Positions 33,526 through 43,735 are shown, counted from the first letter of the stretch. The stretch: DNA of 64,000 nucleotides from Nitrospinales bacterium (GCA_965223795.1 CBDCXL010000002.1:2308030-2372029), one strand, 5' to 3'. Notes: a model not told the origin generated them from the letters alone. Numbers and translations are program-made.

Positions 33526-33610
33526 TCTTTTCCTCCCTGAAAAGATTCAAGCCACAATATTTTTTTATCCGATGAGCTTCTGCCGTGTGGTGTCCGGCGG
33601 ATTCTCCCGT

Positions 33611-34468
33611 TTACTGGAGCAGCTGCAGCACCGACTGCGGGATCAGGTTGGCCTGACCCACCATGGCCGTGGCCGCCTGCACCAGAATCTGGTTCCGGGT
33701 CAGAAGCGCGACTTCTTCCGCGATGTCGGCATCGCGGATGGCGGATTCCGCTGCGGACAGGTTTTCCACCGAAATCGACAGGTTGGCGATGGTGCGCACC
33801 AGCCGGTTCTGCACCGCGCCCACTTTACCGCGGCCCTGGGTGACGATGGAAATCGAGTTGTTCAGCAGGTCCAGCGCGGTCAGCGCGGCGCCGGCGGTGG
33901 TCACGCTCAACACGTCGATACCGAGGCTCGAGGCGGTGATGGCCTGCAGGTTGACCTCGGTGTTGAGGTTGATGCGGCTGTCGGTGGTCGCGTCGATGCC
34001 CACCTGGATCAGAATCTGATTGGTGAAGGCGACCGACGAGGCCAGCGAGCCGTCCACCAGTTTCTGGCCGTTGAACTCGGTGGTGGCGGCGATGCGGTCG
34101 ATTTCGGACCTGAGCGCGTCGAATTCCAGCTGAATGGTCTGCCGCTCGGTGGAACCGACGGTTCCGGTGGCGGCCTGGGAGGAGAGTTCGCGCAGACGGA
34201 TGAGAATACCCGACTGCTCGTTGAGCGCGCCTTCGGTGACGTTGATGAGGGAGATGCCGTCGTTGGCGTTGCGGATGGCCTGCCTGAGGGCGCGGATGTC
34301 CGAACGCAGCGCTTCGGAAATGGCGAGCCCGGCGGCGTCGTCGGCGCCGCGGTTGATGCGGATGCCGGACGCGATGCGCTCGACCGAGATGGCCAGCCTG
34401 TCGTTGTTGATGCCCAATATGCGCTGGGCATTGAGGGAGGGGATGTTGTTAAAGATTCTTATCGGCAT
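33611..34468 (-). CDS. Flagellin (285 aa, member of a near-identical trio)
   Basis: MPIRIFNNIPSLNAQRILGINNDRL...GADDAAGLAISEAL...LTRNQILVQAATAMVGQANLIPQSVLQLLQ supports the call. Confidence 0.95.
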   Translation of the reverse strand: MPIRIFNNIPSLNAQRILGINNDRLAISVERIASGIRINRGADDAAGLAISEALRSDIRALRQAIRNANDGISLINVTEGALNEQSGILIRLRELSSQAATGTVGSTERQTIQLEFDALRSEIDRIAATTEFNGQKLVDGSLASSVAFTNQILIQVGIDATTDSRINLNTEVNLQAITASSLGIDVLSVTTAGAALTALDLLNNSISIVTQGRGKVGAVQNRLVRTIANLSISVENLSAAESAIRDADIAEEVALLTRNQILVQAATAMVGQANLIPQSVLQLLQ

Positions 34469-34640
34469 GTGCCTAATCCTCCTTGATTATTGAAACAATC
34501 ACTTGCCTAGCCCCAGCTTCCTTGCTGGAGCCTGCCTGCTAATATCATCGGATGGGGTGTTTTTTTCGGGGCAACCTCCAAATGCAGATGGATGACGTGT
34601 TTCTTCCGGTCGTTTTGCAAGAGCAATGCAACTTTTGGTT

Positions 34641-34668
34641 GTATCGGGATTTTGAAAAATTACCTTTA
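34641..34668 (-). promoter_or_regulatory. Sigma-28 (FliA)-type promoter candidate for flagellin 33611..34468
   Basis: The minus strand reads TAAA-N16-CCCGATAC, against the consensus TAAA-N15-GCCGATAA. It lies ~170 nt upstream of the ATG. Confidence 0.5.
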
Positions 34669-34765
34669 AGGCTTTTTTCCCGGCTGGAACGGCGTCAGGG
34701 GAAGGGGAGGGCGGTGGGCGGTGCGGCGGTGCGGCGGCGCGCTGCAACGCGGCCGGTTGCGGGGA

Positions 34766-34796
34766 GCAAAAAAAAGCGCCTCCGGGGAGGAGGCGC
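34766..34796 (-). terminator. Rho-independent terminator downstream of flaG
   Basis: The hairpin GCGCCTCC-gggga-GGAGGCGC is flanked by an A8 run on the plus strand, which is a U-tract on the minus transcript. Confidence 0.65.
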
Positions 34797-34845
34797 TTTC
34801 GTTTTGCGTGTGCTTTCAAAGAGCACGCAAGAGCTTCAATAAAAC

Positions 34846-35175
34846 TTATGCGAACTCATTGAAGAAATCCCCTGGGGAGGGAGCGGGACGATTTTTCACC
34901 AGGGAAAAATCGTCCCGAGGAATCTGAACCACGATTTCCCCGGTTTTTGCGTTGATCACCTGGACGATCAATTCCTGAGAATCGTGATCTACCTGGAAAT
35001 CCACTTTCCGGTTCATCGTTCGTGTCAGATGGCCGTTTTCCTCCACCAGGATTTTATCCGGATGCGGCTTGCCGGAATCGGCCGAGCTGGATTCGTTTCC
35101 GGATGTTTTGAGACTCAAAGGCTTCTTAGGCGGAGGCCTAGGCACCGCCACATCCAGAGAAACTTTCAAAGACAT
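34846..35175 (-). CDS. flaG: FlaG-family flagellar protein
   Basis: ATG at 35175 sits behind GGAGGTGA. The C-terminal half, KVDFQVDHDSQELIVQVINAKTGEIVVQIPRDDF, matches the FlaG pattern. The gene starts 53 nt downstream of a flagellin stop. Confidence 0.75.
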   Translation of the reverse strand: MSLKVSLDVAVPRPPPKKPLSLKTSGNESSSADSGKPHPDKILVEENGHLTRTMNRKVDFQVDHDSQELIVQVINAKTGEIVVQIPRDDFSLVKNRPAPSPGDFFNEFA

Positions 35176-35228
35176 GCGGATCACCTCCAGAAACACTTTA
35201 AAATTTATAATCAGTTAAGGGGTATACC

Positions 35229-36086
35229 TTAACCTAAAAGCTGAAGTACGGACTGCGGCAGCAAGTTGGCCTGTCCGACCATGGATGTCGCCGACTGCAC
35301 CAGAATCTGGTTCCGGGTCAGGGTGGCGACTTCCTCCGCGATGTCGGCATCGCGGATGGCGGATTCTGCGGCCTGCAGGTTTTCCACCGTGATGGACAGA
35401 TTGCCGATGGTGCGCACCAGCCGGTTCTGCACCGCACCCACCGCGCCGCGGCCCGCCGTGACGATGGCGATGGCGGAGTTGATGGTGTCGAGCGCGGTCA
35501 ACGCGTTGCCGGCCGTGGTGACGCTCAGACCCTCGATACCGAGGCTGGTGGAGGTGATGGCCTGCAGGTTCACCTCGGTGTTCAGGTTGATGCGGCTGTC
35601 CGAGCTGCTGTCGATGCCGACCTGAATCAGGATCTGATTTGCAGAGGCGACCGAAGAAGAGAGCGAGCCGTCGACCAGTTTCTGGCCGTTGAACTCGGTG
35701 GTGGCCGCGATGCGGTCGATCTCATTCCTGAGAGCGGTGAACTCGAGCTGGATGGTGGCGCGCTCTGTGGAACCGACGGTACCGGTGGCGGCCTGGGAGG
35801 AAAGCTCCCGCAGACGGATGAGAATCCCCGACTGCTCGTTGAGCGCACCTTCGGTGACGTTGATCAGAGAGATGCCGTCGTTTGAGTTGCGGACGGCCTG
35901 CCTCAGTGCCCGGATGTCGGAGCGGAGTGCTTCTGAAATGGCGAGCCCGGCGGCGTCGTCGGCGCCGCGGTTGATGCGGATACCGGATGCGATCCGTTCT
36001 ACCGATTGCGCCAGGCGGTCGTTGTTGATGCCCAATATGCGCTGGGCATTGAGCGAAGGAATATTGTTGAAGATTCGAACTGGCAT
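35229..36086 (-). CDS. Flagellin (285 aa)
   Basis: MPVRIFNNIPSLNAQRILGINNDRLAQSVERIASGIRINRGADDAAGLAISEAL... supports the call. It aligns without gaps to ORFs 33611..34468 and 36709..37566. Confidence 0.95.
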   Translation of the reverse strand: MPVRIFNNIPSLNAQRILGINNDRLAQSVERIASGIRINRGADDAAGLAISEALRSDIRALRQAVRNSNDGISLINVTEGALNEQSGILIRLRELSSQAATGTVGSTERATIQLEFTALRNEIDRIAATTEFNGQKLVDGSLSSSVASANQILIQVGIDSSSDSRINLNTEVNLQAITSTSLGIEGLSVTTAGNALTALDTINSAIAIVTAGRGAVGAVQNRLVRTIGNLSITVENLQAAESAIRDADIAEEVATLTRNQILVQSATSMVGQANLLPQSVLQLLG

Positions 36087-36282
36087 TGCCTCATCCTCCT
36101 TGATGTATGATTGTCGTCAGGGTTATTGTTTTGGCCTCCATACCAAAACAAGCCTCCAAGCTTTAACCCTTGAGTGGAGAATCCCTTTCCCCACCCTGAA
36201 ACATTCGTTTCCGGTCACCTCCTTGATTTTAAAATTGTTATCAAAATTCCGCGAAATGCGGCACAACTTCCCTCAATCAGGC

Positions 36283-36309
36283 CTATCGGACGGAGCGAGA
36301 TGAACTTTA
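36283..36309 (-). promoter_or_regulatory. Sigma-28-type promoter candidate for flagellin 35229..36086
   Basis: The minus strand reads TAAAGTTC-N11-TCCGATAG (TAAA-N15-TCCGATAG). It lies ~195 nt upstream of the ATG. Confidence 0.6.
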
Positions 36310-36669
36310 ACGATTTGTCCGGGAAAAATGCTGCGGTGAAACTCGGAGGTACGGTGACAGACGGGGTGGGGAAGAAACAACGAGCGGTATTTTAGGGAAT
36401 TTCGCGGGGGACGGGAGGCTGAGAAAAAGCGGTGTGAAAAGGGACCCAGAAACGCCCGGCCTCTCCTAAGATCGCGCTTTGTGCGGGGAGAATGAGGGCG
36501 CTGGCTTGGGAAAAGGTTCGGGCCGCCCGGAACGGGCGCGGTTTCTGGGTCCCAACAAGGCTTCGCAGCGTGCGCGGGCCGTGCGTTGCGACCGGCCCGG
36601 ATTGCTGTCGTGCTGCGATATGTCTGAGGAGCGGGGGATTTGTGTGGCCATCATTTGAGATCGCCTCCA

Positions 36670-36698
36670 GGCCGGGACGCGGAATCGCGATCCCGGCC
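36670..36698 (-). terminator. GC-rich stem-loop immediately downstream of flagellin 36709..37566
   Basis: GGCCGGGA...TCCCGGCC contains an inner CGCG/CGCG pairing. There is no clear U-tract, so terminator function is uncertain. Confidence 0.4.
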
Positions 36699-36708
36699 TG
36701 AGAATGGA

Positions 36709-37566
36709 TCAGCCTAAGAGCTGAAGGACGGATTGCGGCAGCAGGTTCGCCTGTCCCACCGCGGAGGTTGCGGTCTGCACCAGGATCTGGTTCCGTGTCA
36801 GCGTGGCCACTTCTTCGGCAATGTCGGCGTCGCGGATGGCGGATTCTGCGGCCTGCAGGTTTTCCACGGAAATCGACAGGTTGCCGATGGTGCGCACCAG
36901 CCGGTTCTGCACCGCACCGATGGCGCCGCGGGAGGCGGTGACCGAAGCGATGGCGGTGTTGATGGTGTCGAGTGCGGTCAGCGCGTTGCCGGCGGTGGTG
37001 ACGCTGAGTGAGTCGATCGACAGCGTCGTGGAAGTGACGGCGGTCAGGTTCACCTCGGTGTTGAGGTTGATGCGGCTGTCGGCGGAGCTGTCGATGCCGA
37101 CCTGAATGAGGATCTGGTTCGCGGAGGTGACCGAGGACGCCAGCGAGCCGTCGACCAGTTTCTGGCCGTTGAACTCGGTGGTCGCCGCGATGCGGTCGAT
37201 TTCGTTTCTGAGCGCCGAGAACTCAAGCTGAATGGTGGCGCGCTCGGTGGAGCCGACGGTTCCCGTGGCTGCCTGGGAAGCGAGTTCCCGCAGGCGGATG
37301 AGGATGCCGGACTGCTCGTTCAAGGCACCTTCCGCTACGTTGATGAGCGAGATGCCGTCGTTTGAGTTACGGACGGCCTGCCTCAGTGCCCGGATGTCGG
37401 AGCGGAGTGCTTCTGAAATGGCGAGCCCGGCGGCGTCGTCGGCGCCGCGGTTGATGCGGATACCGGATGCGATCCGTTCCACCGATTGCGCTAGGCGGTC
37501 GTTGTTGATGCCCAGGATACGCTGGGCATTGAGTGAAGCGATGTTGTTGAAAATTCGTATTGGCAT
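36709..37566 (-). CDS. Flagellin (285 aa)
   Basis: MPIRIFNNIASLNAQRILGINNDRLAQSVERIASGIRINRGADDAAGLAISEAL...QANLLPQSVLQLLG supports the call. Confidence 0.95.
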   Translation of the reverse strand: MPIRIFNNIASLNAQRILGINNDRLAQSVERIASGIRINRGADDAAGLAISEALRSDIRALRQAVRNSNDGISLINVAEGALNEQSGILIRLRELASQAATGTVGSTERATIQLEFSALRNEIDRIAATTEFNGQKLVDGSLASSVTSANQILIQVGIDSSADSRINLNTEVNLTAVTSTTLSIDSLSVTTAGNALTALDTINTAIASVTASRGAIGAVQNRLVRTIGNLSISVENLQAAESAIRDADIAEEVATLTRNQILVQTATSAVGQANLLPQSVLQLLG

Positions 37567-37773
37567 CCCCTAATCCTCCACCAAGAGTTGGAAACGTGTT
37601 TACAATCTGTTTTATTAAAAGGTGTTGCGTGCCCCCGAGGTCTTTGTTTATCGTGGCCGGCCTCAGAATCCACGCAAAATTCCTTAAGCTTTAATTTCAA
37701 TCTGCCGTTCTGGTAAATAAGTTGGGTTATTGGGAAACCCTTGAATTTCAAAAACTTCCCAACTCAATTTTGC

Positions 37774-37800
37774 TTATCGGCAGCCGGAATTAGAACTTTA
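37774..37800 (-). promoter_or_regulatory. Sigma-28-type promoter for flagellin 36709..37566
   Basis: The minus strand reads TAAAGTTC-TAATTCCGGCT-GCCGATAA. This is an exact TAAA-N15-GCCGATAA, ~205 nt upstream of the ATG. Confidence 0.75.
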
Positions 37801-37825: not shown

Positions 37826-38563
37826 TTAGCGCCGCCAGTCTTTTTGCGCGACATGGGCGTTGCATTTCGCCAGCTCGGGATGGGCGTTGAGATAAGCGAG
37901 AACCTGCTCCAAATTGACGGTTTCGCCGGCGGGGTGGAAGAAACGCTCATGGATTGTTTGCATGAGGGTGACGTCTTCCTGCGTGTCCACGGTCAGTCGA
38001 AACGGCTGGTCCTTCAGATAAAGCGGAGCCGGCAGGTGGGCGATGCGGAAGGCATCGGGATGGTCCCTGAAATAGGTGGTGACGTGTTCCCGGTGCGCGG
38101 GAAGCGTCGTGCTTGCGGCGATCCGCTGCAACGCGGCAAGCCGGACGACCTCGGTGCCGGTGCCCAGAGGGATCGCATCGGGAGTGACGGTGTGATCGGC
38201 GTTGCTTTTAATATGCAGGTTTAACAGGGATTGCAGGAGGTTTATGTCGAACAGGGGATTGTCGCCGCAGACGCGGACCACATGCCCGGCGTTTACCGAT
38301 TGTGCCGCCATCAGGAAACGCGCCAGCACATCCTCCTCCGGACCCTGGATGAAACCGATGTCATATTTTTTTGCGGTTTTGGCGAGCGGTTTGTCCTTCG
38401 CCCCCTCGGGCGCGGCGAGGACGATGGCGCCGATCCCGTTCACCCGCTTGAGGCGTTTGATGATATGCTCGATCAGCGGCACGCCCGCCAGCGGCAGCAT
38501 CACTTTTCCCGGATAGCGGGTGGAGCCCATTCTGGCCTGGATGACGGCGGCGGTTCGGGTCAT
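37826..38563 (-). CDS. SpsF/NeuA-like cytidylyltransferase family protein (CTP_transf_3)
   Basis: The N-terminus AAVIQARMGSTRYPGKVMLPLAGVPLIEHIIKRL is typical of acylneuraminate-type cytidylyltransferase / SpsF proteins. Confidence 0.85.
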   Translation of the reverse strand: MTRTAAVIQARMGSTRYPGKVMLPLAGVPLIEHIIKRLKRVNGIGAIVLAAPEGAKDKPLAKTAKKYDIGFIQGPEEDVLARFLMAAQSVNAGHVVRVCGDNPLFDINLLQSLLNLHIKSNADHTVTPDAIPLGTGTEVVRLAALQRIAASTTLPAHREHVTTYFRDHPDAFRIAHLPAPLYLKDQPFRLTVDTQEDVTLMQTIHERFFHPAGETVNLEQVLAYLNAHPELAKCNAHVAQKDWRR

Positions 38564-43207: not shown

Positions 43208-43735
43208 ATGAACGTGACCGCGACAGAAATCGAGGGGGTGTTCCTCATCGAGCCCAAGGTGCACAGCGACGCCCGGGGCCTGTTTTTTGAAAGCTATGTG
43301 AGGAAAAACTACGCCGATCACGGAATCGACGCCGAATTCGTGCAGGACAACCATTCGGTTTCCCGCAAGGGGGCGCTGCGCGGACTGCATTTTCAGGAGA
43401 ACCCCGGCCAGGCGAAGCTCGTGCGGGTGGGCCGGGGAGAGGTGTTCGATGTGGCGGTGGATGTGCGCAAAGGCTCGCCCACCTTCGGCCGCTGGGTGGG
43501 AGCGCGGCTTTCGGAGAGCAACCACCTGCAGATGTACATCCCGGCGGGATTCGCGCACGGGTTCTGTGTGCTGAGCGAATCGGCGCTGTTTCTGTACAAA
43601 TGTTCGGATTACTATTCCCCGCAACGGGAGCGCGGCGTGCTGTGGAACGACCCCGACATCGGCATCGAATGGCCGATCGCAGACCCGATCCTGTCGGAAA
43701 AAGACAAAACCCTGCCTCGCCTCAAGGACCTGTGA
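43208..43735 (+). CDS. rfbC: dTDP-4-dehydrorhamnose 3,5-epimerase
   Basis: IEGVFLIEPKVHSDARGLFFESY...RGLHFQ...KLVRVGRGEVFDVAVDVRKGSPTFG...IPAGFAHGF supports the call. Confidence 0.95.
   Translation: MNVTATEIEGVFLIEPKVHSDARGLFFESYVRKNYADHGIDAEFVQDNHSVSRKGALRGLHFQENPGQAKLVRVGRGEVFDVAVDVRKGSPTFGRWVGARLSESNHLQMYIPAGFAHGFCVLSESALFLYKCSDYYSPQRERGVLWNDPDIGIEWPIADPILSEKDKTLPRLKDL

Follow-up and report, generated by a model that had tools for sequence, protein, structure and literature searches.

Organisation of the flagellin locus

We analysed 64,000 nucleotides of DNA from a Nitrospinales bacterium (GCA_965223795.1, CBDCXL010000002.1:2308030-2372029), hereafter the window, which carries four tandem flagellin genes, flaA to flaD. 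An initial annotation of this DNA, made from the sequence alone, had described sigma-28 promoters and long leaders with a CsrA/FliW-type control signature upstream of these genes. Here we report that the promoters and leaders are conserved in the phylum Nitrospinota, that the leaders of flaB, flaC and flaD carry GGA sites arranged as in CsrA-repressed flagellin mRNAs, and that the flaA leader holds a different element, a pseudoknot. The locus contains the following genes and terminators, all on the minus strand and listed from high to low coordinates.

37826-38563, minus strand: cytidylyltransferase gene, directly upstream of flaA
36709-37566, minus strand: flaA, flagellin of 285 aa (Pfam Flagellin_N and Flagellin_C)
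35229-36086, minus strand: flaB, flagellin of 285 aa
34846-35196, minus strand: flaG-like gene (Pfam FlaG)
34772-34800, minus strand: intrinsic terminator 3' of flaG
33611-34468, minus strand: flaC, flagellin of 285 aa
32677-33525, minus strand: flaD, divergent flagellin with 58% identity to flaA
32617-32646, minus strand: intrinsic terminator 3' of flaD

The nearest relatives of these flagellins are all from Nitrospinota, the closest locus being L001 (96% amino-acid identity for flaA).

Sigma-28-type promoters and long leaders

The pattern TAAA-N15/16-NCCGATA was searched for throughout the window, with 100 shuffles as the control. Exactly three matches were found against 0.09 expected (0 of 100 shuffles reached three), all of them upstream of flagellin genes only and where the initial annotation had placed its promoters.

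37775-37800 (final A at 37774), minus strand: sigma-28-type promoter of flaA, TAAAGTTCTAATTCCGGCTGCCGATA, an exact match; the orthologous promoters of relatives lie 178-254 nt from the ATG
36284-36309, minus strand: sigma-28-type promoter of flaB, a pattern match
34642-34668, minus strand: sigma-28-type promoter of flaC, a pattern match with an N16 spacer

The class-3 consensus of enterobacterial and Bacillus sigma-28 (FliA/SigD) is TAAA(GTTT)-N-GCCGATAA. The flaA promoter is an exact TAAAGTT...GCCGATAA, those of flaB and flaC keep TAAAG and CCGATA, and all three stand upstream of late flagellar genes. As in sigma-28 promoters, the -35 TAAA and the -10 (G)CCGATA(A) are 15-16 nt apart and the genes served (flagellin, flaG) are of class 3. 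No sigma-70-like site was found in the flagellin region of the window, and no fliA in the window or in the Nitrospinota flagellin-locus DNA examined (about 2 Mb).

From the end of the -10 element to the ATG there are 208 nt at flaA, 197 nt at flaB and 173 nt at flaC. Of 127 flagellin-like genes in about 40 Nitrospinota loci, 72 carry the motif, mostly with 170-215 nt between the end of the -10 and the ATG. An independent metagenome sample, for which the flaA ribosome-binding motif was the sole criterion of choice, has it in 55 of 65 unique leaders (at 177-258 nt, mode 205-207). Judged from these sequences, a long predicted leader is a conserved property of the phylum Nitrospinota. The initial annotation had called such leaders unusually long for flagellin genes, which holds against the 45-nt 5' untranslated region (UTR) of Campylobacter jejuni flaA (Dugar et al. 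2016, PMC4894983) but not against Bdellovibrionota, whose flagellin leaders are also about 175 nt.

A further element follows these promoters. Eight nucleotides after the -10, 58 of the 72 Nitrospinota flagellin promoters have a T, and purines come next (aTTGAG or aTTAAG) whatever the leader class; in the window the element lies at 37766-37756, 36275-36265 and 34633-34623 (minus strand). This conserved T-purine-rich stretch, 8-12 nt after the -10, distinguishes the Nitrospinota promoters from the sigma-28 consensus and probably marks the context of the transcription start.

The terminators after flaG and flaD are strong, and a search of the window for intrinsic terminators found none between flaC and flaD. 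From the positions of promoters and terminators we infer three transcription units, flaA, flaB-flaG and flaC-flaD, with the flaG-like gene probably co-transcribed with flaB. flaD has no sigma-28 promoter of its own in the window, nor does the fourth paralogue carry the motif in any relative examined. These observations bear out the earlier suggestion that flaD lacks its own promoter and support its predicted transcription by read-through from flaC.

CsrA-type hairpins in the leaders of flaB, flaC and flaD

Leaders that are orthologous by position were sorted into paralogue-specific classes (A to D, for flaA to flaD) with covariation support. The 120 nt upstream of the 127 Nitrospinota flagellin ATGs show a 67-fold enrichment of hairpins that combine an ANGGAN hexaloop with a stem of 4 bp or more, and the GGA positions of these hairpins are bimodal, at 10-16 nt and 44-62 nt from the ATG. 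The high-affinity hexaloop of CsrA/RsmE is CANGGANG (PMC4894983); it is matched by 52 of 68 upstream hairpin loops and by all 54 of the loops that hold the Shine-Dalgarno (SD) sequence. The SD hairpins present UCA-N-GGAGGA in the hexaloop (54/54), a type that is present at flaB, flaC and flaD in the window. GGAGG occurs in only 15 of the 68 upstream loops, so most of these loops are not mimics of the SD. The distance from GGA to GGA is 31-43 nt in 38 of 42 genes; for bridging by one CsrA dimer, a range of inter-site distances wider than the optimum is permitted. That optimum has been cited as 18 nt (PMC4894983). The independent metagenome set reproduces the hairpin, CANGGANG and spacing results.

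The flaC and flaD leaders contain the following hairpins.

34510-34531, minus strand: flaC upstream hairpin, 8-bp stem and hexaloop AAGGAA, GGA at 34521-34519; CAAGGAAG fits CANGGANG
34475-34488, minus strand: flaC SD hairpin AAUC-AAGGAG-GAUU, GGA at 34482-34480, fitting CANGGANG
33527-33544, minus strand: flaD SD hairpin CUUUUC-AGGGAG-GAAAAG, intact

At flaC the two GGA sites are 39 nt apart. Across 19 class-C orthologues GCA-GGA-GC and AUCA-GGAGGAU are invariant, and four of seven stem pairs in the upstream hairpin show compensatory changes on both sides. The core of this hairpin, CCAGC-AAGGAA-GCTGG at 34528-34513 (minus strand), had been recognised in the initial annotation and is confirmed. 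Class-D leaders are, in most relatives, short intergenic sequences with both hairpins as in flaC. The decay of the upstream GGA hairpin of flaD in the window is shared with the closest relative (L001:13962-14055), and most relatives keep that hairpin.

The flaB leader is conserved along its whole length and contains five GGA sites (a pseudo-SD, three hairpin loops and the SD hairpin), not the two or three counted earlier.

36215-36227, minus strand: flaB pseudo-SD ATCAAGGAGGTGA, an anti-SD complement, unstructured and with no conserved start codon behind it
36173-36195, minus strand: hairpin H1, loop AAGGGAU, GGA at 36184-36182; double changes in 6 of 8 pairs
36120-36169, minus strand: three-way junction GGGUU...AACCC, enclosing hairpins Ha and Hb
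Arm of the three-way junction, minus strand: hairpin Ha, loop UUGGAG, GGA at 36157-36155
36126-36151, arm of the three-way junction, minus strand: hairpin Hb, hexaloop AUGGAG, GGA at 36139-36137
36092-36105, minus strand: flaB SD hairpin CAUC-AAGGAG-GAUG, GGA at 36099-36097

The Hb arm is the TTGTTTTGG-TATGGAGG-CCAAAACAA element, which we confirm at 36151-36126 (minus strand). Fitted to 15 sequences, the class-B structure has 93.8% of cells paired and 12 pairs with double changes; 0 of 500 shuffles reached the observed pairing and covariation, and no slid control came near. Covariation in orthologous leaders thus extends to the stems of both flaC and flaB. RNAalifold also proposed that the flaB 5' end (CCUCAUUGA) pairs over a long range with the SD; we rejected this pairing, which lacks covariation and is broken in the window.

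These data bear on the idea that the motifs have no function and arose by chance or from the composition of AT-rich intergenic DNA. Single-sequence folding z-scores near zero for flaA and flaC would fit it. The three promoters against 0.09 expected, the 67-fold hairpin enrichment, the compensatory changes in every helix tested, and the conservation of the features throughout the phylum and in the independent metagenome sample all speak against it. Because of the conservation and covariation data we treat chance as excluded, its residual probability being negligible.

The pseudo-SD of flaB invites another explanation, namely that the leaders act purely in cis without CsrA, their 5' hairpins, pseudoknot and SD-like GGAGG stretches either stabilising very abundant flagellin mRNAs (as a STAB-SD, a ribosome stand-by site or a roadblock to 5'-3' decay) or tuning access to the SD. 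All 10 nt of the pseudo-SD core AAGGAGGTGA (36224-36215, minus strand) are complementary to the canonical 16S 3' tail, a better fit than that of the real SD, ATCAAGGAGGATGA (36104-36091). That a duplicate SD lies upstream of the real one had been reported before, and our mapping (36227-36215, 123 nt from the real SD) agrees. GGAGG is kept in the pseudo-SD of 15 of 15 core class-B leaders. An upstream open reading frame behind it was considered and rejected, as neither frame nor start codon is conserved. An SD-like sequence complementary to the 16S 3' end and without a cognate start codon is what defines a STAB-SD, such as the mRNA stabiliser of the Bacillus thuringiensis cryIIIA leader, where a perfect SD-like sequence lies at the processed 5' end. 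The flaB element likewise is SD-like, stands far upstream of the real SD and has no start codon to serve; unlike the cryIIIA element it lies about 50 nt inside the predicted transcript, among GGA hairpins, and a stabiliser role for it is putative. A purely cis-acting role sits less well with the hairpins themselves. For a stabiliser, neither a constant distance of about 39 nt from the SD nor presentation of the SD in a hexaloop would be needed. Of the 68 upstream hexaloops, 53 read AAGGAU, AAGGAA or AGGGAC and not GGAGG, which makes them poor anti-SD partners and good CANGGANG sites.

On the RNA side, and as far as sequence can tell, flaB, flaC and flaD have every feature expected of a CsrA-repressed flagellin leader. 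An apical-loop GGA lies upstream at flaC (34510-34531) and flaB (36173-36195 and 36126-36151), and in a degenerate form at flaD in the window; a second GGA lies over the SD; and the sites are spaced by tens of nucleotides. No such upstream apical-loop GGA was found at flaA. The CsrA/FliW-type signature of the initial annotation therefore stands for the RNA of three genes and falls for flaA.

A conserved pseudoknot in the flaA leader

For flaA the initial annotation had noted AAGGAA and a CGTGG...CCACG hairpin. Both are present, AAGGAA at 37685-37680 and the two hairpin strands at 37674-37670 and 37656-37652; AAGGAA, however, is kept only in the closest relative, and the hairpin is stem 1 (S1) of an H-type pseudoknot.

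37633-37674, minus strand: H-type pseudoknot in the flaA leader, identified by covariation and a duplex permutation test
37674-37670 with 37656-37652, minus strand: pseudoknot S1, CGUGG paired with CCACG
37668-37661 with 37640-37633, minus strand: pseudoknot stem 2 (S2), UUCUGAGG paired with CCUCGGGG
37651-37641, minus strand: A-rich loop 3
37567-37590, minus strand: flaA ribosome-binding region CCAACTCTTGGTGGAGGATTAGGGG, invariant in the class-A alignment and outside any AUC/GAU hairpin

In general form, stem 1 pairs (C/G)GUGG with CCAC(G/C), and stem 2 pairs the hairpin loop with a pyrimidine-rich segment 3' of A-rich loop 3. The stem-2 loop reads CUGAGG here and GAAGGA, GAAGAG, CGAAGA or CUAAGG elsewhere, and one variant carries a compensatory change in the stem-1 core (GUGA with UCAC). 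As MAFFT misaligned the pseudoknot, 18 modules were aligned by hand with N padding, fitted by eye; in this alignment seven of eight S2 pairs show double changes, with a covariation score of 0.52 (shuffles, 0.21; slid controls, at most 0.17). An alignment-independent test used 64 distinct modules, in each of which loop and tail were delimited by invariant anchors. Loops combined with their own tails gave -10.2 kcal/mol, against -7.6 with other tails and -4.4 with shuffled tails, and 0 of 2000 permutations reached the observed value. With a strict descriptor the module is found upstream of class-A flagellin ATGs, at a distance of 66-123 nt, and nowhere else above the null rate, the other matches being few. 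At least 60 of the 65 metagenome class-A leaders contain it.

Tandem duplication of the module is seen in roughly 10% of leaders (L009:7061-7323 and L013:681-963; in the metagenome, L091, L120, L130, L136, L174, L176 and L197).

None of the leaders matched Rfam at E values up to 10, the pseudoknot falling below every gathering cut-off (including those of Termite-flg, flg-Rhizobiales and the riboswitches). Its best Rfam match was SAM-II (long-loop) at 15 bits against a cut-off of 44 (E = 2.6; L013:793-845), with only the H-type topology shared. The pseudoknot predicted in the flaA leader is a well-supported structured RNA that is absent from Rfam. It shares with the H-type riboswitch aptamers (SAM-II/SAM-V, preQ1) a short stem 1, an A-rich loop 3 and a stem 2 formed with the hairpin loop, as well as a module size of about 45-50 nt and the occurrence of tandem copies. 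It differs in having no match to them in sequence or by covariance model, no U-rich triplex strand and the SD outside, and its flagellin gene context suggests no ligand.

Some other trans-acting factor, whether an RNA-binding protein, a small RNA or a small-molecule ligand acting through a riboswitch at the flaA pseudoknot, might read the leaders. The unpaired nucleotides of the pseudoknot are invariant (GUGGA, A-rich loop 3 and the 3' GGGG), as is typical of a binding pocket; the element is modular, occurs as tandem copies in some leaders and has no Rfam counterpart; and class-A leaders are without CsrA-type hairpins. On the other side, the pseudoknot does not overlap the flaA SD, no conserved terminator or anti-SD partner was found for it, and for flaB, flaC and flaD we know of no reader of CANGGANG hexaloops outside CsrA/Rsm. 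We judge this explanation unlikely for the locus as a whole and a live option for flaA only. Two pairings that would have tied the flaA leader to its SD were also examined. The pseudoknot 3' strand as an anti-SD was rejected, since the tail-SD duplex (-8.9 kcal/mol) is no better than shuffled ones (-7.6 kcal/mol), and a pairing of the 5' end with the region before the SD (GAGUUGGGAA with UUUCCAACUC) exists in the window and is not conserved.

Distribution of csrA and fliW

Genes for CsrA and FliW were searched for by tblastn and hidden Markov models in the window, 78 genome loci and 120 metagenome loci. Matches occurred only in four loci of other phyla: L072, L044, L046 and the Bdellovibrionales locus L078. 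In all four, csrA and fliW adjoin flagellin or flgL genes. In L072, a Firmicute locus with csrA and fliW adjacent, the flagellin leader has the layout GGC-AAGGAU-GCC ... UUCAAGGAGGAA, as in flaC. Overall, the combination of hairpin and SD was found in flagellin leaders of an Effusibacillus, a Myxococcales and a deltaproteobacterial locus (L072, L044 and L046) and of Bdellovibrionota loci. This hexaloop layout beside csrA and fliW in other phyla supports CsrA-type translational repression as the probable control of flaB, flaC and flaD.

Whole-database protein searches were run with a CsrA profile, a single FliW and a FliW profile, keeping the best 120 matches of each. The listed matches are dominated by Bacillus, Bdellovibrionota and Planctomycetota; no protein labelled Nitrospinota is among these best 120, which is uninformative on the presence of csrA or fliW and not a negative. 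One CsrA gene context that we considered turned out to be gammaproteobacterial. We found no mention of csrA or fliW in the literature and supplements on Nitrospina. csrA occurs in most phyla, yet in only about 30% of genomes (PMC13443453).

Two metagenomic proteins, P0001 (143 aa) and P0002 (167 aa), have CsrA scores about twice the normal (E = 1e-53 and 1e-49) and appear to hold two CsrA domains per chain.

Several observations weigh against CsrA-type repression of the flagellin genes. Searches of the 64-kb window, of Nitrospinota genome loci (about 670 kb) and of metagenome loci (700 kb) turned up neither csrA nor fliW, and the Nitrospinota loci examined thereby differ from the four loci in which both adjoin flagellin or flgL genes; should this genome possess csrA and fliW, they are not linked to its flagellin genes. 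The folding z-scores of single sequences, at -0.4 to -2.2, are modest. Three flaB sites contain a full GGAGG, the pseudo-SD being a perfect anti-SD complement, and such sites could bind 30S subunits rather than CsrA. The upstream hairpin of flaD is degenerate in the window (33560-33585, minus strand; GCAGAAGC, with GAA in place of GGA). Finally, flaA has no canonical sites, and 63 of 64 independent class-A leaders lack an ANGGAN hairpin.

The failure to find csrA or fliW near flagellin genes in the loci searched, like the strong 5'-terminal hairpins that open class-A leaders, favours a purely cis-acting stability or stand-by role. The same leader layout accompanies csrA and fliW in other phyla, which argues the opposite. 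We regard such a role as the main alternative to repression by CsrA, though a rather improbable one.

Neighbouring genes and further paralogues

Several relatives have an extra divergent flagellin-like gene between flaA and flaB (L005:7942, L008:7071, L009:8962, L013:2677, L015:8877). In its place the window has a 400-nt flaA-flaB spacer (36310-36708), common only to L001; whether this spacer is a flagellin remnant was checked, and the idea was rejected. In one lineage a further flagellin paralogue (L010:6354-6727, L018:6364-6734, L047:5137-5509) has its sigma-28 motif about 345 nt upstream; the leader of this paralogue is much longer and of a different kind. The cytidylyltransferase upstream of flaA (37826-38563, minus strand) is of the CMP-sugar type and, together with a nearby dTDP-sugar epimerase gene (43208-43735, plus strand), may point to flagellin glycosylation. 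The sole match in the window at the Rfam gathering level is a tRNA gene (48056-48128, plus strand).

A model for flagellin expression in Nitrospinota

We propose that flaB, flaC and flaD are subject to CsrA-type repression, with flaA under different control through its pseudoknot. We consider CsrA-type repression probable, partly since CsrA/Rsm proteins are the only readers of CANGGANG hexaloops known to us, with appreciable room for doubt. RNA polymerase with FliA (sigma-28) would start the flaA, flaB-flaG and flaC-flaD transcripts about 165-200 nt upstream of the first ATG. At flaB, flaC and flaD, by analogy with known systems, a CsrA-type dimer would grip the GGA of the upstream apical hexaloop and that of the SD hexaloop and so block 30S binding. 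FliW, freed by flagellin export, would then sequester CsrA and relieve repression, as in Bacillus and Campylobacter. The three extra GGA sites of flaB might bind several dimers or titrate the protein. Control of flaA would be of another sort, exerted through the H-type pseudoknot that lies about 65-85 nt before its ATG. The transcription starts, CsrA binding, the FliW link and the direction of regulation in this scheme are predictions. The interpretation given in the initial annotation is thus partly supported: for three of the four genes it is of the right kind, for flaA it is wrong, and its protein side is unproven.

The closest parallels are with two known flagellin mRNAs. In B. subtilis, hag is repressed through two GGA stem-loops, one over the ribosome-binding site, under a Hag-FliW-CsrA partner switch (PMC13443453, summarising Yakhnin 2007; Mukherjee 2011). 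Both hag and the genes studied here have a sigma-28/sigma-D promoter and two GGA stem-loops of which the downstream one covers the SD. The Nitrospinota leaders differ in being about twice as long, in the five GGA sites of flaB, in the three leader architectures carried by four paralogues, and in the lack of csrA and fliW beside the flagellin genes in the loci examined. The C. jejuni flaA 5' UTR is CsrA-repressed through stem-loops SL1 and SL2 with a 21-nt GGA spacing (Dugar et al. 2016, PMC4894983). There, too, ANGGA stands in two apical hexaloops that resemble CANGGANG, the second over the ribosome-binding site, with compensatory changes in relatives and a sigma-28 promoter, and the notion of CsrA titration by an abundant flagellin leader would fit a multi-site flaB leader. 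By contrast, the leaders described here are about 165-200 nt long with a spacing of about 39 nt, and the first paralogue, flaA, is without such hairpins.

For flaA, we raise the tentative and still doubtful possibility that the pseudoknot founds a new cis-regulatory RNA family, specific to the first Nitrospinota flagellin paralogue, that has replaced ancestral CsrA hairpins. It might be a modular sensor for a ligand or a flagellar protein, or a CsrA-responsive switch between SD-like and anti-SD-like strands. If so, tandem copies would give cooperative control, and one operon family would combine two post-transcriptional logics in setting flagellin stoichiometry.

Among marine nitrite oxidisers the Nitrospinota are the main group; their genetic manipulation is difficult, and to our knowledge almost nothing is known about their gene regulation. 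Our analysis provides a phylum-wide map for the expression of four flagellin paralogues, with promoters, transcript ends and translational operators as predicted. It would extend the CsrA-type flagellin operator to another phylum, as a phylum-level variant of the known sigma-28/CsrA circuit, and indicates that paralogues can diverge in operator architecture, with two sites, five sites or none. The flaA pseudoknot, a new structured RNA that is small and has about 64 natural variants, should be easy to test biochemically.

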